A stretch of 64,000 nucleotides of DNA from a virus (taxonomy: Duplodnaviria > Caudoviricetes), in IMG/VR virus record IMGVR_UViG_3300026442_000101; one strand, 5' to 3'. The notes under the pieces are model-generated. The model did no database searches and was not told where the DNA came from. It saw only the letters and a list, made by a program, of their open reading frames with translations. Positions within the stretch are counted from its first letter, which is position 1; every line of letters begins with the position of its first letter. A program made the position numbers and the translations under genes. This document shows, one piece after another, positions 5,132-34,885 of the stretch.

Positions 5132-5809
5132 TCACTGTTCGATGACGAGCTTACCGTACTGTTCGCATACCAGCCTGTGGCCTTGCGAATCCAGCAGAGG
5201 GTGGACAAACGTGTTGCCCCGCAGCTGGTAATCGAGAGCAGCCATTTCAGCGATCAGAGACGGTGGTACGTCCCATGGCGCTTTCATGGCTTTAATCTGC
5301 TCTTCAGTAGGTTCGAGGTGAACGTCGATGCGATGGTTCAGTTCCAGTGGTCCTGCCTTGTACAAGCGGCAGAGGATCATTGGCGGCTGTGGTTCGAACA
5401 TCTTGTCGCTGTCGATCCGAATACTAAACAGATAACCATCGATCTCACGAACGACCTCAGCCACCACCGCCAGTACGTGCTTCGACCGGAACTGTCGTGG
5501 CGCCTGGTTGAAGGTGACGTTGCCGATCCACGGCAGGTCGGAGTAATGGACGTCTTCAAGATCTGGGATATCCTCTAAGCTACCTGCTGCCGTCTTCTTC
5601 TCTTGCCTGACTACACGAATGCGGCGGCGCATCACGTCGGACTTATTGTCGGGCAGACCCCAGTAAGAAATCTCTGCAGACTTCTTCTTGCGCAGCACTT
5701 CGAACACACTGCTGTTCGCGATGGCGATTTCACGGTGACCGGCGGTTTCCTCTACGGGAATATAGATCACCTTGATCGCTGTTTTCTTTGCTGCCTGCAA
5801 CATATTCAT
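5132..5809 (-). CDS. hypothetical protein
   Basis: 225-aa ORF with GGAG SD. Confidence 0.75.
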   Translation of the reverse strand: MNMLQAAKKTAIKVIYIPVEETAGHREIAIANSSVFEVLRKKKSAEISYWGLPDNKSDVMRRRIRVVRQEKKTAAGSLEDIPDLEDVHYSDLPWIGNVTFNQAPRQFRSKHVLAVVAEVVREIDGYLFSIRIDSDKMFEPQPPMILCRLYKAGPLELNHRIDVHLEPTEEQIKAMKAPWDVPPSLIAEMAALDYQLRGNTFVHPLLDSQGHRLVCEQYGKLVIEQ

Positions 5810-7464: not shown

Positions 7465-8208
7465 TCAAGTCCTTGCGAGTGTGGTTCCGCGCTGCCCTTG
7501 GTATTTACCGCCTTTGTCTTTGTAGCTGATTCTGCAGACTTCAGAGACAGTGTGGAACAGCAGCTGAGCGATACCGCAGCCGAGGTACACGCGGGTTGGG
7601 CTGTTGGTCATCGAAGCGATCTCGAGAACCAGCTCGCCTTCCCATTCCGGCTCCAGCGGGGTAACTAGCTGAGACAGGCCAACGCGGGCATAGGTGGACT
7701 TGCCAAGGCAGGTCACCAGCAGGTCACGCGGAATAACGAAGTATTCGACGGTGTGGGCCAGCGCCAGACTGTTAGGCGGCAGGATGAAGTAGTGCAGACC
7801 GAACTCTTCATCGAAGTGGATCACCGGGTCCATGAGCTGGTCGCCATACGGCCGCATCGGATCGACGATCTCACCGGTGAGGTTGGTGAACAGCTTGATA
7901 CCGTCGGCCTTGATGCGAATGTCGTAGCCGTAGGAGCTGGTGCCCCAGCTGATGATCTTGGTACCCTTCTCGTTGAAGCGGTTAGCCTCTGGAGAGAACG
8001 GCCAGATCATGGGCCGCCAACCGAAGCGGGAGCAGTCCTCGTCATCCTTTGGAGTCTCCAACCCCATCCAGCGACGCTTCTCCATATTCGCCACGATCTC
8101 TGGCGTATGGGTGACGCCCGGAATGATCGGTTCCCAGAAACCATCGCGACGCATGAAGTGGTTAGGGCGCATGCAACGCGCCTGAATTTGACGATCGGAC
8201 AGCAGCAT
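7465..8208 (-). CDS. dcd: dCTP deaminase
   Basis: ISWGTSSYGYDIR, GKSTYARVG, TPLEPEWEGELVLE, YQGQ motifs; ~50-aa N-terminal insertion. Confidence 0.95.
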   Translation of the reverse strand: MLLSDRQIQARCMRPNHFMRRDGFWEPIIPGVTHTPEIVANMEKRRWMGLETPKDDEDCSRFGWRPMIWPFSPEANRFNEKGTKIISWGTSSYGYDIRIKADGIKLFTNLTGEIVDPMRPYGDQLMDPVIHFDEEFGLHYFILPPNSLALAHTVEYFVIPRDLLVTCLGKSTYARVGLSQLVTPLEPEWEGELVLEIASMTNSPTRVYLGCGIAQLLFHTVSEVCRISYKDKGGKYQGQRGTTLART

Positions 8209-8764: not shown

Positions 8765-9664
8765 TTACATCTCAGCCAGACGATGGATAGCGTCTTCCAT
8801 CTCCATGTCGGGGTTCTCATCGAGAAGCTGGCGCATCTGATCCGTTACGGGAGTCTTGCTGATCGGAATCCGAATCACCTCACCGCCGGTGACGGTACGC
8901 TCGACAGGCGCAGTGAGTTGTTTGACTTCTTGCGGTGCGGAGGAGGTGTGCTCCGATTCCACTGCCTGTCGCCACTTGTTGCGGTTACGCTCCTTGAGAT
9001 CTTCGCAGCGTTTGGCGATGGACTCGTGATGTTCTTCCAGAGTCTTGTGCGTCTTCAGCTTGAAGCGGAACTTCTCCACTTCACGCGTCATGCACGGCTC
9101 GCAACGCCCGCACGCTGTAGCGCCCTTACGGGCATTGGTAGTCGGTAGTTCACAGACCCAGGTAGCAGCGTAGATCTCTGGTGGGAGATCGCGCATCATG
9201 GCGAACTTGGTAGTGTGTCGCAACGGGAACTTCAAGGGGACGACATCACCTTTCTTGGTGAAACGCCACATGGCATTCCACGCCTCGATCATCGAGTGCA
9301 TCTCTTGCAGCGTGTCATCGTCAGCGCAATAGCCGATGTTGACCGAGGTGTGGACATCGGGATCGACCATCTCGATTGCAGCTACCATCCAAGGTAGCGC
9401 TTGACGCCACTTGGCTTTAGGCGTCGCCGACAGATTGACCTTCGACAACACACGCCCGCCGCCATGCGGATACCAGCCTGGCCAATACTCTTTGATCAGG
9501 CTGATGATCTCCCCGCGGGAGTCCTCTTCGACGGAAGACTTATTGCGACCCTGGGCGCCGTCAGCGTAGATGTAGTCGACCTGAGTTCCTGCCTCTGCCA
9601 TTTCCCACATGAGGTAAGTGGAGTCCATCCCACCAGAGAAGAGGACGAGTGCACGCTTAGCCAT
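8765..9664 (-). CDS. QueC-like PP-loop ATPase (7-cyano-7-deazaguanine synthase family)
   Basis: LVLFSGGMDS PP-loop; C..CGRCEPC Zn motif. Confidence 0.75.
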   Translation of the reverse strand: MAKRALVLFSGGMDSTYLMWEMAEAGTQVDYIYADGAQGRNKSSVEEDSRGEIISLIKEYWPGWYPHGGGRVLSKVNLSATPKAKWRQALPWMVAAIEMVDPDVHTSVNIGYCADDDTLQEMHSMIEAWNAMWRFTKKGDVVPLKFPLRHTTKFAMMRDLPPEIYAATWVCELPTTNARKGATACGRCEPCMTREVEKFRFKLKTHKTLEEHHESIAKRCEDLKERNRNKWRQAVESEHTSSAPQEVKQLTAPVERTVTGGEVIRIPISKTPVTDQMRQLLDENPDMEMEDAIHRLAEM

Positions 9665-30405: not shown

Positions 30406-30933
30406 TCAGTTGACCCGAAGGATCACTTGATCACGACCACCGCGTTGAGCCAGCCATTCGTAGAACTGCGTATACTTCATATTGCAGAAGAAGTAACTGG
30501 CATCGTCGACGATGATGAGCTTTGCTGGGGGAATAGGATCGGGCAGACCTTTCTTCCGATGCAGGATCGAGCGCTTTACTTCGTATGGCGTACACACACG
30601 AACGCTTTCTAATTCTGCACGGGGATACCCGATGAAATCAGGGTTCTCGTTCGCACAGTTCTGGATCAGCATCTTCTTGATCCTGAGGTTCGGTACGATG
30701 TAGAGCGCCTCACCTACCAGGTTGAAGATCTGAGCCAAAGCTCTGGTACGGCCGGTCTGACGTGGGACGAAGAACCCCACAGTCTTCCAGTCACGCAACC
30801 AGATGTCGTCTGGAGGAGCTGCCCTTCTGTACTGTTCCTCGAACCACTCCTGTTCGGCGTGGAATGGCGCCAGCAGGCTCTGTACCATCTCCTTCGGATT
30901 GAAGGGAGGTTGTGAGACCGTTTTCTTACTCAT
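30406..30933 (-). CDS. small P-loop NTPase-like protein
   Basis: PRQTGRT Walker A-like and IIVDDA Walker B-like. Confidence 0.6.
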   Translation of the reverse strand: MSKKTVSQPPFNPKEMVQSLLAPFHAEQEWFEEQYRRAAPPDDIWLRDWKTVGFFVPRQTGRTRALAQIFNLVGEALYIVPNLRIKKMLIQNCANENPDFIGYPRAELESVRVCTPYEVKRSILHRKKGLPDPIPPAKLIIVDDASYFFCNMKYTQFYEWLAQRGGRDQVILRVN

Positions 30934-31349
30934 CTTGTAATCTCGCCTTTATATTCAAACGGTAAGTTCGCCTTCTCAGCGATCTTCCGTAAAACGTTTA
31001 TGCTTAAGTGTCGGTGACAGAACTTACCGGGACTACAATAGCACGCAATGGCCACCTCACTGTCTCGTCCCAATTCGAGCAGATCGTAGAAAGACCGACG
31101 CCAACTACCGTACCGATCGCGTAATAGCGCTAGGTATTGTTCGGTATACATCTCGTCGGTTATGAGCTCGCCCTTGTGGTTCATGACCATCGTCCAAGTG
31201 GGTGCGAGAAACTCGTACTCCACAGCTGACTTTACCGTGGTATCGGCCAGGATGATTCCCCTATCCTGCACCAGTCTCCACTGGCTAATCTGCGCTGTCC
31301 AAAAGGCCATGCTAAGCTCCGGTATTCTCTGACATACATTTGCCAGCAT
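30930..31349 (-). CDS. DUF488-like protein
   Basis: ACYCSPGKFCHRHL motif. Confidence 0.6.
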   Translation of the reverse strand: MLANVCQRIPELSMAFWTAQISQWRLVQDRGIILADTTVKSAVEYEFLAPTWTMVMNHKGELITDEMYTEQYLALLRDRYGSWRRSFYDLLELGRDSEVAIACYCSPGKFCHRHLSINVLRKIAEKANLPFEYKGEITR

Positions 31350-31364
31350 AAATGAAAGTTTACG

Positions 31365-31396
31365 GCATAAAGCCGGGATCTATCCCGGCAGTATGT
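31365..31396 (-). terminator. hairpin terminator closing the RNA locus
   Basis: GCCGGGA-TCTA-TCCCGGC with CATA/TATG flanks. Confidence 0.7.
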
Positions 31397-31397
31397 T

Positions 31398-31530
31398 TAG
31401 GCCCCGAGCGGGAGATTTGAACTCCCCACCAACTAATAAACGACGGACACGGGAAAGTGCGTCAGGCATGAAACCCTTTCCAGTATATCGTATCGCAGTT
31501 CGCCGGAGTAGCGCCAGCCGCTAGCCAGGG
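31398..31530 (-). ncRNA. tRNA-scaffold RNA NC1 (133 nt): acceptor, D-like hairpin, long insert, T arm, G-CCTA end
   Basis: Acceptor CCCTGGC/GCTCGGG; T arm GGGAG-TTCAAAT-CTCCC. Confidence 0.55.
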
Positions 31531-31537
31531 ATGATCG

Positions 31538-31726
31538 TTACAGGAACTTGGGCTTTTCCTTAGTCAGGCAAGCCGCCGGGAAGCCGGTAGCGCGAACTTC
31601 ACCATCGGCCATCCAACGAACCACCGTGTGCTCGTCTTCCTCATCATAACGCTCGACGGTCAGTTCCGGAGAACCGCTTTTGAGGTAGACGACATCACCT
31701 GGTTCGAACTTGGTAGCTTCGCTCAT
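31538..31726 (-). CDS. YodC/DUF2158-family protein
   Basis: FEPGDVVYLKSGSPELTV...VRW...FPAACL. Confidence 0.75.
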   Translation of the reverse strand: MSEATKFEPGDVVYLKSGSPELTVERYDEEDEHTVVRWMADGEVRATGFPAACLTKEKPKFL

Positions 31727-31744
31727 GCCGGTATCCTGTATTGT

Positions 31745-31948
31745 TTAGAAATCGGAGAAGGTGCGCATGAAGATGGACTCAGCAATGGTCCAGATCTTCC
31801 CTGCCGGTGCATCATGGGTAGGCTCCACATTTGTGTAGACCACCATCGGCCAAGAGCAATCTTGCCCATGTTGCGCCTTATACAGGACTTTGAATCGCAG
31901 TCCGCTAGGAGACTTGTAATCCACTCCTTCTTCATACGACTCAAGCAT
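31745..31948 (-). CDS. DUF1653-like protein
   Basis: FKVLYKAQH...MVVY...IWT...F pattern. Confidence 0.6.
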   Translation of the reverse strand: MLESYEEGVDYKSPSGLRFKVLYKAQHGQDCSWPMVVYTNVEPTHDAPAGKIWTIAESIFMRTFSDF

Positions 31949-31963
31949 TGCACTCTCTCCTAA

Positions 31964-32115
31964 TAGGTCTCCAACATACCCAGTGTATCGCCTATTGTAT
32001 TGTTGAGCGGTCGCAGTTAGGATTTCGGGTCGTACCTAAATTTTCCCCATTGCTGGGCGATGTCCTGATGTAGCGTTTTGGACGATTGCGACACTTTAGC
32101 GATACCACGTTGGAA
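31964..32115 (-). ncRNA. structured RNA NC7 (152 nt) closed by an acceptor-like stem, ending A-CCTA
   Basis: TTCCAACGT/ATGTTGGAG, GTATCGC/GCGATAC, GTCGCA/TGCGAC, CCCA-GCAA-TGGG, TTAGG/CCTAA. Confidence 0.55.
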
Positions 32116-32117
32116 AA

Positions 32118-32245
32118 TAGGTCTCCACCCGTGTTTTCGAGACACGGACCTCACTCATGTACCTGATCCACGCCGAACCCCGAAGGGATGGGCATGTTCG
32201 GAATCGAACCGAAAGAGTGCGCTCTACCATCTGAGCTAGGCGGAG
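32118..32245 (-). ncRNA. tRNA-scaffold RNA NC2 (128 nt) with permuted mini-tRNA in the anticodon arm
   Basis: Acceptor CTCCGCC/GGTGGAG, D arm, stem CACTC/GAGTG around 58-nt insert holding a second T arm. Confidence 0.7.
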
Positions 32246-32252
32246 ATAAAAC

Positions 32253-32978
32253 TTACGCGCAGCGGTAGTTCGGGTTCTCGAGAACAACCTCGAGGTCGAA
32301 GAACAGCTCGGTCTTGATGCTGGACGGCACGGTGATGGAAAGCAAGGCGCGCTCAGGATCTACCTTCAGGTAGATGTCTTCAGCACCAGGGATGCTGAGG
32401 GTGTAGTTCTGAGTACGCTGACCTTCGATCTGCTTGATAGCAGAGAGGTCATGGGACAGCTTGATACCATCGGCCGTGCGGACGTTGTTGAAGCGGATAG
32501 CGCCGACGCTGTCGGTCAGATCCAACACGCTGGGATCGCCGAAGCCGAACACGTTGAACTTACCATCGACCAACGGCAGGTTCTTGGCTTCGAGGCGACG
32601 CTCGGTAGCGCGGCCAATGCGACGACGCAGGACAGTGGAGTACTTGTCCATGAACGCGCCTTGCTGCATCATCATGTCTACATCGAGATCGGAAAGACCT
32701 TCAGGCTTGGCGCCCTGACCCACGTTGTAGAGGAACGAGCACAGACCTTTGTGACGCGCGGTCAGTTGCGCTTGCTCGATAATCATGCGCTGGACATGCG
32801 CCGGGCGGCTGTCGATGTGACCGAGCGGCAAGTGATCTTTCAGGAACTGCTCTTCCGATTGCCAGGTTACGTTGCCGGCTTCGTCTTTGACGTTGTAGCC
32901 AGGCTTACCATCTTCGCCGGATTGAGACGACCAGGCGAGGACAGTAACGTTCTTGTTCACCAGATAGTTCTGAGTCAT
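32253..32978 (-). CDS. multidomain hypothetical protein with crAss001_48-like helical hairpin
   Basis: QRMIIEQAQLTARHKGLCSFL...QQGAFMDKYSTVLRRRI pattern. Confidence 0.7.
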   Translation of the reverse strand: MTQNYLVNKNVTVLAWSSQSGEDGKPGYNVKDEAGNVTWQSEEQFLKDHLPLGHIDSRPAHVQRMIIEQAQLTARHKGLCSFLYNVGQGAKPEGLSDLDVDMMMQQGAFMDKYSTVLRRRIGRATERRLEAKNLPLVDGKFNVFGFGDPSVLDLTDSVGAIRFNNVRTADGIKLSHDLSAIKQIEGQRTQNYTLSIPGAEDIYLKVDPERALLSITVPSSIKTELFFDLEVVLENPNYRCA

Positions 32979-33006
32979 GAAAGATCTCTGCGGGTGGTTG
33001 GATGAA

Positions 33007-33095
33007 TAGGGCGTTCCTCGTGGATTTGAACCACGGACCTTCGGCGTGTCTTTTAGCTAAGGGGCCGACGCTCTAACCAGCTGAGCTAAGGAACG
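33007..33095 (-). ncRNA. tRNA-scaffold RNA NC3 (89 nt) with 18-nt anticodon loop
   Basis: All four tRNA stems perfect; loop CCCTTAGCTAAAAGACAC; ends C-CCTA. Confidence 0.75.
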
Positions 33096-33099
33096 AGAA

Positions 33100-33213
33100 T
33101 AGGGGCTTCCTCGAAGAATCGAACTTCGGACTTCCGCCAGGTATGGTGAGCCTGCCCCATTTAAGGGGCCAGGAGGCTCGAAGACGGCACTCTACCAACT
33201 GAGTTAAGGAAGC
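33100..33213 (-). ncRNA. tRNA-scaffold RNA NC4 (114 nt) with 44-nt hairpin insert replacing the anticodon loop
   Basis: GCTTCCT/AGGAAGC, CCGTC/GGCGG, CGAAG-TTCGATT-CTTCG; ends C-CCTA. Confidence 0.75.
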
Positions 33214-33220
33214 ATGTAGC

Positions 33221-33496
33221 TTAAAGCAAACCTTCCGAGATCATGAACTGTTCGAGGTCATCAAAGAAACCATCGTACAGGATTTCGGTACCGGCAAAAC
33301 CTTTCCAGCGCCACCACTTAGGTTCTTTACCCATAGCGGTGATGCTTTCTTCGGTTTGCTTTCTGAAGAAATTACCGACCTTATCGAACGCAACGAGGTC
33401 GGTGGTGTAGAGATCCCCGTGGACGTGCAGCAGCCTGATTATCTTGGCTTCCAGTTCTGGACTAACCTCGAGTTCTTTCAGTTGCTTATTGCGCAT
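33221..33496 (-). CDS. hypothetical protein, 91 aa (start reassigned to MRNK)
   Basis: The longer start overlaps the NC5 RNA. Confidence 0.7.
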   Translation of the reverse strand: MRNKQLKELEVSPELEAKIIRLLHVHGDLYTTDLVAFDKVGNFFRKQTEESITAMGKEPKWWRWKGFAGTEILYDGFFDDLEQFMISEGLL

Positions 33497-33512
33497 CACA
33501 AGTTTCTCTGAA

Positions 33513-33664
33513 TAGGGAGCACTGACTGGAATTGAACCAGTGACCTTCGTCAAGTTGGCCTTACGCTCTAACCAACTGAGCTAATCACCCATACGGGCGA
33601 TGCCGGACTCGAACCGGCGACCTTAAGGGAGGGACGACGCTCTACCAAACTGAGCTACAGTGCT
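33513..33664 (-). ncRNA. nested double tRNA NC5 (152 nt): outer tRNA containing a complete circularly permuted tRNA
   Basis: Outer AGCACTG/CAGTGCT and TCGTC/GACGA; inner GGGTGAT/ATCGCCC and TAAGG/CCTTA; two D arms, two T arms; ends C-CCTA. Confidence 0.85.
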
Positions 33665-33670
33665 ATTGAA

Positions 33671-33821
33671 TAGGTAACTCTAGCAGGGAATCGAACCCGC
33701 TGCCTTCCTCATGTTTGCGTCTACCAATTCCGCCATTGGCCGATAGTGCCGGCCAAGCAGGACTCGAACCTGCAATCCTTTTCAGGAAGGTGAGGACGCT
33801 CTACCAATGAGCTACAGAGTT
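33671..33821 (-). ncRNA. nested double tRNA NC6 (151 nt): outer tRNA containing a permuted Leu-type tRNA lacking its anticodon arm
   Basis: Outer AACTCTG/TAGAGTT and TCCTC/GAGGA; inner CGGCCAA/TTGGCCG, D arm TGGCGGAATTGGTAGACGC; ends A-CCTA. Confidence 0.8.
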
Positions 33822-33823
33822 AG

Positions 33824-34122
33824 AATAAGCGCCTGGGGAGGACATTCCCCAGGTCTTGCCACTAATTACCCTAGTGGCCAAGGTGCCTTCATATCGCTTC
33901 AGGCAGGTTTGCGCGGTACTAGCTAGTGTCTGACCATGCTAGAACAGTGCTCGGCATGTGCGGCGCTGGCGCTTCCCTGATAACTCAAAGCCAACAGACT
34001 GGCTCCTCGTCGTCGTAGGGTCTAATGTAACTACAAAGCCTTACGTGCAGCTATAGCGCCTCGGGTAGGGAGGGCACGGGGCTAGGATCTTAGGCTTGGC
34101 ATAGGAGTACCGAGCTTCTGAT
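33824..34122 (-). ncRNA. candidate ~300-nt structured ncRNA
   Basis: No credible ORF; hairpins GCCACTAG/TTAGTGGC, CCTGGGG/CCCCAGG; flanked by tRNA-Gln and NC6. Confidence 0.4.
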
Positions 34123-34123
34123 T

Positions 34124-34201
34124 TGGCAGGGGTAATTGGATTCGAACCAATGATCGCGGCGTCAAAGGCCGCTGCTTTAGGCCAGGCTAAGCTATACCCC
34201 G
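34124..34201 (-). tRNA. trnQ: tRNA-Gln(UUG)
   Basis: GCGGC-CTTTGAC-GCCGC anticodon arm, TTCGAAT T loop, encoded CCA. Confidence 0.9.
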
Positions 34202-34209
34202 ATTGAAAA

Positions 34210-34285
34210 TGGCTCCACGACCTGGACTCGAACCAGGGACAGGCGAATTAACAGTCCGCTACTCTACCGACTGAGTTATCGTGGA
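34210..34285 (-). tRNA. trnN: tRNA-Asn(GUU)
   Basis: GCGGA-CTGTTAA-TTCGC, acceptor TCCACGA/TCGTGGA, CCA. Confidence 0.92.
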
Positions 34286-34361
34286 ACAAAGGGTGACCCT
34301 CCAGCCGATCTACGGCTAGTTAAGCGCGCTGCGTAATACGCTGCCTGGCAAGGGTCGTAAA

Positions 34362-34445
34362 TGGTGGATGGGGAAGGATTCGAACCTTCGAAAAATTAAT
34401 GGCGGCTTTACAGGCCGCTCCCTTTGACCTCTCGTGAACTCATCC
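34362..34445 (-). tRNA. trnY: tRNA-Tyr(GUA)
   Basis: GCGGC-CTGTAAA-GCCGC, long variable arm, CCA. Confidence 0.9.
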
Positions 34446-34454
34446 AGATGCAAG

Positions 34455-34530
34455 TGGTAGTACCGAGTGGGATGGAACCACCGACCTTATCCTTATCAGG
34501 GGTGCGCTCTACCAGCTGAGCTACGGCACT
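34455..34530 (-). tRNA. trnI: tRNA-Ile(GAU), possibly degenerate
   Basis: CTGATAA loop, CCA; anticodon stem CACCC/GGATA has 2 mismatches and T loop is TTCCATC. Confidence 0.7.
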
Positions 34531-34576
34531 ATCTTTCTTACATCTTATCTACACGTTCCGTAAAAATGTACGGAAA

Positions 34577-34885
34577 TCAATGAGATCCCTTCGAGCAACT
34601 CCGGCAACCTTTACAGCCAGGACGAGGAGTACCGGCCTTGATGTTGATGTCGGTCTTCCAGGTATGCGTTGCCCGCTCTACAGGAGATGCGGTGATAGCG
34701 ATCTTCACCTCGACATCTTCAGGATCCAGACCGAGCAGCACCCAGATGATCTCATGAACCTTAGGCTGCATGAGCTCGGTAAGTTCGGCCAGACCTACCT
34801 CAGTGAACGGAAGGTTATTCTCTGCGGCCACGTCTTTGATGACGTTCTCGATACGTTGACGGAAGTCCATGGTTTCTCGGGTCAT
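34577..34885 (-). CDS. hypothetical protein
   Basis: 102 aa, C-terminal CxxCxxC. Confidence 0.7.
   Translation of the reverse strand: MTRETMDFRQRIENVIKDVAAENNLPFTEVGLAELTELMQPKVHEIIWVLLGLDPEDVEVKIAITASPVERATHTWKTDINIKAGTPRPGCKGCRSCSKGSH

Follow-up and report, generated by a model that had tools for sequence, protein, structure and literature searches.

Locus and genome context

The window, that is, the whole stretch of 64,000 nucleotides that was analysed (IMG/VR record IMGVR_UViG_3300026442_000101), is part of an uncultured phiKZ-like jumbo phage from soil, and a phiKZ_IP domain match was found among its ORFs. Four decoding tRNAs (Ile, Tyr, Asn and Gln) were found to be encoded on the minus strand, and after them comes a series of odd tRNA-like genes with N-CCU-AUU ends. 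Among the latter lies the RNA element described here, which occupies 32245..32118 on the minus strand and is 128 nt long. The CCA was found to be encoded in the four decoding tRNAs of the cluster; the element itself ends in A-CCU-A.

The gene upstream of the element encodes a Sequestin-family protein (Table 1) that was seen on contigs of up to 248 kb. A DUF488-N3a gene (PF22751) was also present nearby, at window positions 30930-31349 on the minus strand, and the two neighbours, of which the Sequestin family has been described as an immune-signal sponge, suggest a counter-defence neighbourhood. No near relative of the region was found by BLAST among 50,697 phage records, where near and distant searches returned either a tRNA-Asn match only or nothing. 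Related contigs were fetched via the Sequestin-family protein, namely L001 and L002 (76% protein identity) and L003 (67%) from IMG/VR, and L008 (61%), L009 (51%) and L010 (68%) via the protein collection. A metagenome scan with the same protein yielded no contig beyond one already known, and the pattern GGTTCGA-N16-CCCTTCGGGG was found in IMG/VR only in the known contigs and in unrelated tRNA ends and terminators.

An ORF-free and well-conserved stretch of about 285-360 nt was present between the decoding tRNAs and the mimics in the window (33832-34115, minus strand), in L001 (1830-2195) and in L008 (190-480); it ends in the strong hairpin CCUGGGG...CCCCAGG and then CGCUUAUUC, and gave no Rfam match. 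A conserved RNA-like stretch (window 31375-31530, minus strand; L009 2095-2250; L010 2830-2989) was found to contain the canonical T arm GGGAG-UUCAAAU-CUCCC near its 3′ end and a terminator-like hairpin after the T arm, and neither ARAGORN nor Rfam made a call on it. At window positions 31963-32127 (minus strand) the 11-mer GGAGACCTATT was found twice, at 32127-32117 and 31973-31963, bracketing about 150 nt (element 32115..31964). This stretch was absent from L001, L003 and L010, in which the CCTATT of the mimic abuts the ribosome-binding site of the next gene, and the element 32115..31964 may have been inserted, or may be an extra copy that arose by duplication, to judge by its appearance. 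In L008 the orthologue of the mimic is followed by a class II-like tRNA (2058-2160; 'tRNA-Tyr' with anticodon ATA according to ARAGORN) inside an extra outer stem, UUGGAGUC/GACUCCAA. In the 299-aa ORF at window positions 8765-9664 (minus strand), the match to QueC (PF06508, residues 4-39, E 6.7e-9) was limited to the N-terminal PP-loop part.

Table 1. Parts of the RNA element and its upstream gene in the window (all on the minus strand; changed pairs refer to the orthologues)
Feature	Position	Sequence	Remarks
Upstream gene, 241 aa	32253..32978		PF21825 (crAss001_48; Sequestin in newer release); stop codon 7 nt before the RNA
Outer acceptor stem, 5′ strand	32239..32245	CUCCGCC	Partner 32123-32129; 4/7 pairs changed on both sides
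Spacer		UA	Between outer acceptor 5′ strand and D arm
D arm	32221..32236	GCUC-AGAUGGUA-GAGC	Holds G18 and G19 equivalents; stem invariant, GG in every orthologue
Anticodon stem, 5′ strand	32215..32219	CACUC	Common to both bodies; partner 32152-32156; 4/5 pairs changed on both sides (CACUC/GAGUG, UCCCC/GGGGA, CCUUC/GAAGG)
Inner T arm	32197..32213	UUCGG-UUCGAUU-CCGAA	T loop canonical; 3/5 pairs changed on both sides in L009 (ACAGG/CCUGU)
Inner acceptor-like stem	32169..32196	CAUGCC/GGCGUG	Closed by 3x3 internal loop and CCC-UUCG-GGG cap; in L009, 2 pairs changed on both sides and 1 pair (wobble change) on one side
Linker	32162..32168	GAUCAGG	Single-stranded; GG (32162-32163) in all lineages (alignment A4 and FLC9)
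Anticodon remnant	32157..32161	UACAU	U34 A35 C36 A37 U38, valine-type NAC; A35 and C36 invariant in orthologues
Anticodon stem, 3′ strand	32152..32156	GAGUG	
Variable loop and outer T arm	32130..32151	AGGUC, CGUGU-CUCGAAA-ACACG	3/5 stem pairs changed on both sides
Outer acceptor, 3′ strand	32118..32129	GGUGGAG-A-CCU-A	Discriminator A; CCU-A in place of CCA

Architecture of the element

The preliminary description had proposed an outer tRNA body that carries a nested T arm and a capped acceptor minihelix in permuted order inside its anticodon stem. Every helix and element that it listed was found on the minus strand, the minimum free energy structure from RNAfold was exactly the proposed fold, and the insert was found to be 58 nt long, as described. 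In DNA letters, the outer body contained the acceptor CTCCGCC/GGTGGAG, the D arm GCTC-AGATGGTA-GAGC, the anticodon stem CACTC/GAGTG, AGGTC, and the T stem CGTGT/ACACG with the off-consensus loop CTCGAAA, followed by A-CCTA. The insert contained T, TTCGG-TTCGATT-CCGAA, CATGCC, CAT, CCC-TTCG-GGG, TTC, GGCGTG and GATCAGGTACAT. Read as RNA in the 5′ to 3′ direction, the element begins with the acceptor strand CUCCGCC, UA, the D arm, G, the stem strand CACUC, U and the inner T arm, and ends with GGCGUG, the 12-nt single strand GAUCAGGUACAU, GAGUG, AGGUC, the outer T arm, GGUGGAG, A and CCU-A.

The acceptor, D and T arms were found with their elbow nucleotides (D-loop GG, T-loop UUCRA), except for a C at position 54 in the outer T loop of the window copy. 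This C54 was found in the window copy only, and the outer T loop of the other genomes was canonical (UUCGAUU, UUCAAUU or UUCGAGU). The fold under selection contains two T loops and two GG motifs, that is, two potential elbows, together with one free and one capped acceptor end. The GG of the linker may dock on the inner T loop.

The energy of the fold was not exceptional, with uninformative z-scores of -0.83 for the window element and +0.27 for the element of Burkholderia phage FLC9 described below. As the stability is unexceptional, the case for more than chance rests on conservation and not on energy.

Conservation and covariation

One orthologue was found per related contig, directly after the same Sequestin-family gene, in five related metagenomic phage contigs, and the length of the RNA gene was conserved at 124-128 bases. 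The covariance model R1 scored the orthologues at 126-170 bits and every other tRNA or tRNA-like gene, the paralogues, at no more than 70 bits; at the distant Sequestin loci L011-L013 it detected no such RNA. In the structure-guided alignment A4 of 6 distinct sequences, 97.7% of the pair cells were standard-paired and 16/36 pairs were changed on both sides, a count that was reached in 0/500 shuffles and that no slid register came near. Compensation was found in 5/6 helices (Table 1), the exception being the invariant D stem, and these compensatory changes back the proposed topology.

A lack of covariation between CATGCC and GGCGTG had been named in the preliminary description as the finding that would speak against the nested stem. 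The covariation was found, as CGAACCC/GGGTTTG in L009 and as CUGCCCC/GGGGCAG in FLC9, and because of the L009 pairing at that stem the proposal stands.

The inner 45 nt, from the T arm to GGCGUG, contained 0/45 differences between the window and the L001/L003/L008/L010 group, against 28-29/90 in the rest of the element (Fisher 2.6e-6, inner versus rest). In L009 the inner part was as diverged as the outer (14/45 versus 31/90) but compensated. The sameness of the inner module reflects either sequence-specific reading in that sub-lineage or exchange between genomes.

The region was found in 24 soil metatranscriptome runs as Logan contigs, some of them of whole-phage-genome length, which are uninformative on a discrete RNA, its ends and splicing. 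Over 31300-34600, four runs gave contigs of up to 234 kb that run across everything without a joint at the insert and that say nothing on splicing. In the RNA run X23 a contig begins at 33013, right after Illumina adapter letters and with a shift of contig depth; the neighbouring 18-nt-loop element has its 3′ acceptor strand there, with 33013 falling 2-3 nt within it, and the contig start is a weak hint of the end of an abundant RNA.

Judged by its conservation pattern, the element is a real and conserved RNA gene, a predicted non-decoding tRNA mimic and not a broken tRNA. A decaying tRNA gene interrupted by a chance insertion, for which the off-consensus T loop CUCGAAA of the window copy and the lack of an anticodon loop could be quoted, is almost certainly the wrong explanation, being contradicted by the covariation in 5/6 helices, by one orthologue per genome and by the retention of the architecture in FLC9.

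A counterpart in a cultured phage

An unannotated RNA of the same plan, with unrelated stem sequences, was found in Burkholderia phage FLC9 (LC667451) at 5532..5387 of the retrieved locus L033 (LC667451.1 128912-129057, minus strand), by model R1 together with inspection of the unannotated gaps beside tRNAs. Its anticodon stem is CCCGU/ACGGG, its inner T arm CCCGG-UUCAAAU-CCGGG and its outer T arm GGUGG/CCACC. The inner acceptor contained 7 bp (CUGCCCC/GGGGCAG), is fully different from that of the window and is closed by a 13-nt loop, after which a GG-containing strand follows. A free-energy fold gave the same topology unaided. When further relatives were sought with the FLC9 stretch, it matched only itself.

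The FLC9 element sits inside a pure tRNA cluster. FLC9 was also found to contain the full double-headed type and the hairpin-insert type, the latter being present in Ralstonia phage FLC4-3B as well. The three unannotated tRNA-like genes of FLC9 (L033 5387-5857; LC667451.1 128912-129382) contained a 2-nt bulge (AA or UU) in the 3′ strand of the acceptor, after the second pair from the T stem, and end in A-ACA or A-CCA instead of the N-CCU-AUU of the window clade; the bulge is a clade-specific quirk. The two neighbours of the counterpart in this group lie at L033 5552-5681 and 5695-5857.

The double-headed sisters in the window (33664..33513 and 33821..33671) share with the element the outer scaffold, the N-CCU-AUU end, the NAC remnant described below and a permuted inner body. 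In these sisters, unlike the element, the inner cloverleaf half is complete, D stem included, and has an anticodon stem of its own that is connected via an internal loop; the element has no inner D stem and a single anticodon stem that is common to both bodies. The preliminary description had taken the element for a trimmed form within a possible evolutionary series. This part was not supported: distant FLC9 keeps both the reduced and the full double form, and the reduced form is therefore an old and stably kept paralogue that does not look like a recent stage of erosion.

A valine-type anticodon remnant

The strand after the inner acceptor had been described as a D-loop-like remnant. Its GG was found to be conserved and the rest was not. 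A valine anticodon loop accounts better for its 3′ part, GUACAU, in which the 3′ half of such a loop is retained as U34 A35 C36 A37 (UUACAA in L009). The comparison was extended with a parser that finds the acceptor, D stem, anticodon stem and T arm blind to the loop and prints the bases before the 3′ strand of the anticodon stem; as a control, it returned the true loops and anticodons of decoding tRNAs (CUGUUAA, CUGAUAA and others). It was applied to 27 odd elements of 6 types from 7 loci (window, L001, L003, L008, L009, L010 and FLC9).

All 27 parsed odd tRNA-likes (27/27) contained N-A-C-N-N before the 3′ strand of the anticodon stem, with A35 and C36 of the valine anticodon, and in all 27 the NAC ends exactly 2 nt before the stem strand. 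The count is one of conservation and not of independent events, because the odd elements are probably paralogues, maybe of one ancestor. The NAC was kept across the hairpin-insert, 18-21-nt-loop and double-headed types (window 31398-33821, minus strand; L001 2286-2970; L009 617-1181; L033 5387-5857). The element itself reads UACAU in the window, UACAA in the L001 group, UUACAA in L009 and AACAA in FLC9, and the equivalent of position 33 is occupied by G, A, U and A, respectively. In the sister elements, base 34 was found to drift even from one close relative to the next, being U, G, C or A.

The L009 copy reads G|UUACAA, the loop GUUACAA of a tRNA-Val(UAC). Because the base across the insert is G in L009, the insert lies exactly between nucleotides 32 and 33 of the would-be tRNA-Val(UAC) loop. 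The discriminator A73 was found in all orthologues, FLC9 included. G45 was present (AGGUC), position 20 is U, and the minor valine element G20 was absent. The acceptor contained irregularities, namely a G5-U68 wobble in the window, a U3-G70 wobble in L008 and the 2-nt AA bulge in FLC9. No canonical tRNA-Val was found in the fetched tRNA clusters (by ARAGORN for the window).

In E. coli, A35, C36 and A73 are valine identity elements that are read by valyl-tRNA synthetase (ValRS) (PMC9976931). Plant-virus TLS-Val structures keep A35 and C36 with A73 or C73 and tolerate large inserted stem-loops, A76 is required for valylation, and E. coli ValRS prefers a regular acceptor helix (PMC9976931). ValRS is also a target of phage T4, whose vs gene modifies the enzyme of the host, and this matters in minimal medium (PMC13716836). 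Invariant positions 35 and 36 beside a drifting position 34 form the pattern that would be expected if a protein reads 35 and 36 and decoding is unneeded. The constancy of A35 and C36 could also have a structural cause, or could serve some reader that is not ValRS.

Comparison with known RNA classes

ARAGORN called neither a tRNA nor a tmRNA on the element, and cmscan with Rfam gave no RF00005 match at E up to 10, whether the element was scanned within its surroundings or by itself. In place of a canonical 7-nt loop with U33, the loop was found to be 58 nt long, with U33 present in L009 only. The element cannot decode, since it lacks a 7-nt loop, lacks U33 in 3/4 lineages and carries a bulky insert beside the anticodon. 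An intron-bearing tRNA was considered and judged very unlikely, as removal of the insert restores a standard loop in L009 only; no group I match was found in Rfam and no bulge-helix-bulge motif by eye.

The tRNA-like domain of YrlA is the closest described thing. It shares the permuted order of T arm, loop-closed acceptor and D region, and its entry stem stands where the anticodon stem would be; the YrlA RNA of M. smegmatis is cut by RNase P and receives CCA (PMC4201824; Chen et al. 2014). In the phage element, by contrast, the stem that leads into the domain belongs to a second complete tRNA body, as its anticodon stem, and is not a Ro60-binding helix. The YrlA-like inner order, with a T arm and a closed acceptor, is present and covarying, while the inner D stem is absent. 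Membership of YrlA (RF02553) was rejected, as no match was found on 32118-32245 at E up to 10, even with the element alone, and the two ends of the RNA pair as a tRNA acceptor and do not make a Ro-binding stem. No TROVE/Ro60 or RtcB domain was found among 30 window ORFs, which include 21 of at least 249 aa and leave out the ORF at 7465-8208 (247 aa).

The TLS-Val of TYMV type is likewise viral and non-decoding, presents A35 and C36 with an A or C discriminator on a tRNA-shaped fold (PMC9976931, PMC7749636) and tolerates large inserted stem-loops (PMC9976931). It differs in being the pseudoknotted 3′ end of an RNA genome, whereas the element is encoded by a gene of its own in the genome of a DNA phage; its acceptor stem is a true one, and a second T arm is nested in it. 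The 3′ end of TYMV is encoded as CC and the last A is added later.

Permuted tRNA genes and the two-piece tmRNA also place the 3′ half (T arm and acceptor 3′ strand) before the 5′ half (acceptor 5′ strand and D region). Membership of these classes was rejected, as the inner module contains no anticodon arm of its own, no D stem and no tag reading frame, and it is capped and not opened. A trace match of the permuted cyanobacterial tmRNA model (cyano_tmRNA) to the inner module, 7.8 bits at E 2.8, was not significant.

RNAC and RNAD of phage T4 (species 1 and 2) are small stable RNAs beside the phage tRNAs, with roles that are unknown (PMC3014915, PMC9697503). A canonical T arm is also found at the end of T4 RNAC, where the 5′ and 3′ ends pair and so close it, but neither RNA contains a second T arm, a D arm or an NAC remnant, and kinship was rejected in that no match to model R1 was obtained; T4 RNAC is a looser analogue than YrlA.

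The possibility that the inner minihelix is a copy of a host tRNA was rejected at the level of exact matches. The exact 20-mer of the inner T arm and acceptor occurred 4 times in 185,579 species genomes, each time within coding sequence, and since it was found in no tRNA there, the minihelix copies no particular tRNA of those genomes. A tRNA body with a nested, permuted T-arm/acceptor module was not found described in the literature or in the Rfam families searched.

Proposed reading and its alternatives

Since the element displays A35, C36 and A73 while being unable to decode, it may be read as a trans-acting mimic that occupies or bridges tRNA-binding proteins. The reading that we propose, and that we consider about equally likely to hold or to fail, is that of a non-decoding, tRNA-Val-derived mimic with two elbows, which would act on tRNA-binding proteins, ValRS first; the function is here deduced from sequence and predicted structure. 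The transcript is predicted to fold as a tRNA-Val-derived body with an acceptor, a D arm, a 5-bp anticodon stem, a variable loop and a T arm, in which nucleotide 33 of the anticodon loop is replaced by a module of 51-58 nt. In this module a second T arm stacks on an acceptor-like stem with a hairpin cap, and the GG-containing strand comes next, giving two tRNA elbows on one shared anticodon stem. Release from the polycistronic unit would most likely be carried out by the tRNA-processing enzymes of the host, RNase P cutting the 5′ end and other enzymes trimming the 3′ end to N-CC, and the product would accumulate as a stable RNA that is presumably excluded from the ribosome. ValRS would be the first candidate to be engaged, through A35/C36 and A73 on the outer body, and a second factor that binds elbows or minihelices could sit on the inner module.

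The CCU end, the irregular acceptor and the lack of G20 fit binding without efficient charging better than charging, and the wobbles and the bulge of the acceptor argue that ValRS would, at best, bind the RNA without charging it. The ValRS link is the best testable lead.

An immune decoy is an unlikely alternative. The RNA would titrate an anti-phage effector of the host, one directed at the acceptor, the T arm or the elbow of tRNAs, such as a CCA-modifying toxin or an acceptor-cleaving nuclease, and ValRS would have no part in it. The stretch holds an anti-defence-type gene of the Sequestin family, for which a signal-sponge role has been described (bioRxiv 10.1101/2025.07.12.664507), each molecule would offer two acceptor/T minihelices and two elbows, and phage tRNAs are known counter-defences (bioRxiv 10.1101/2023.03.15.532788). 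The invariance of A35 and C36 in every type is, however, left unexplained by a decoy, the capped inner acceptor end and the CCU of the outer end would be poor baits for CCA-directed enzymes, and the inner 20-mer imitates no tRNA exactly among the 185,579 species genomes.

The tRNA shape could instead be mere punctuation in cis, a signal for RNase P and 3′ trimming that separates the Sequestin mRNA from the downstream mRNA or stabilises their ends, the excised RNA having no job; we give this the same low probability as the decoy. It would agree with an RNA that begins 7 nt past the upstream stop codon, with the CCTATT that abuts the next ribosome-binding site in L001, L003 and L010, and with the interleaving of several tRNA-likes with genes in one unit, at the end of which a terminator-like hairpin lies near 31372-31389. 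For such a role a plain tRNA-like would be enough, yet the nested module was the most conserved part (0/45 changes), distant FLC9 keeps the architecture in a pure tRNA cluster, and RNase P does not need an invariant A35 and C36.

Removal of the insert after transcription, leaving a decoding tRNA-Val(UAC), is very unlikely. Excision between nucleotides 32 and 33 would give the perfect loop GUUACAA in L009, and a canonical tRNA-Val is missing from the fetched clusters. In the window, however, the same excision would produce G33, and in FLC9 and the L001 group A33; the loops that remain differ in length, neither a bulge-helix-bulge motif nor a group I core can be seen or was found in Rfam, base 34 is free to drift in the sister elements, and the insert itself was found to be under structural selection.

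It is highly improbable that the element is a YrlA-type Y RNA, the inner module of which would be the tRNA-like domain that tethers Ro60/Rsr for RNA repair or decay. The inner module does share the permuted order of YrlA (PMC4201824), the sister element 33561-33626 gave a sub-threshold YrlA match of 37.7 bits, and TROVE proteins are encoded by some jumbo phages (PMC7824862). Against this stand the null result with the YrlA model, the pairing of the 5′ and 3′ ends as a tRNA acceptor and the ORF survey given above, in which neither TROVE nor RtcB was found.

Significance

Viral tRNA mimicry is known mainly from plant RNA viruses and Y RNAs, and two tRNA elbows on one anticodon stem form a fold that was absent from the papers and Rfam families searched. 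Genes of this kind escape the tRNA finders and stay unannotated in deposited genomes. A test at the bench is possible because the cultured Burkholderia phage FLC9 has the same design. The invariant valine-type A35 and C36 give these phage RNAs a first concrete and testable partner, ValRS, and they connect the valine TLSs of plant viruses, the long-unexplained modification of ValRS by T4 and the RNAs of jumbo phages.

A wider proposal, which we regard as doubtful, is that DNA jumbo phages own a counterpart of the plant-virus valine TLS, a battery of non-decoding RNAs addressed to ValRS through A35/C36, of which the two-elbow members, the present element among them, would be bivalent adaptors. 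One body would then hold ValRS, and the nested minihelix would hold another factor that binds tRNA. If the proposal is true, host translation or starvation signalling would be retuned during infection, and the phage RNAs would be an RNA analogue of the modification of ValRS by T4 Vs.
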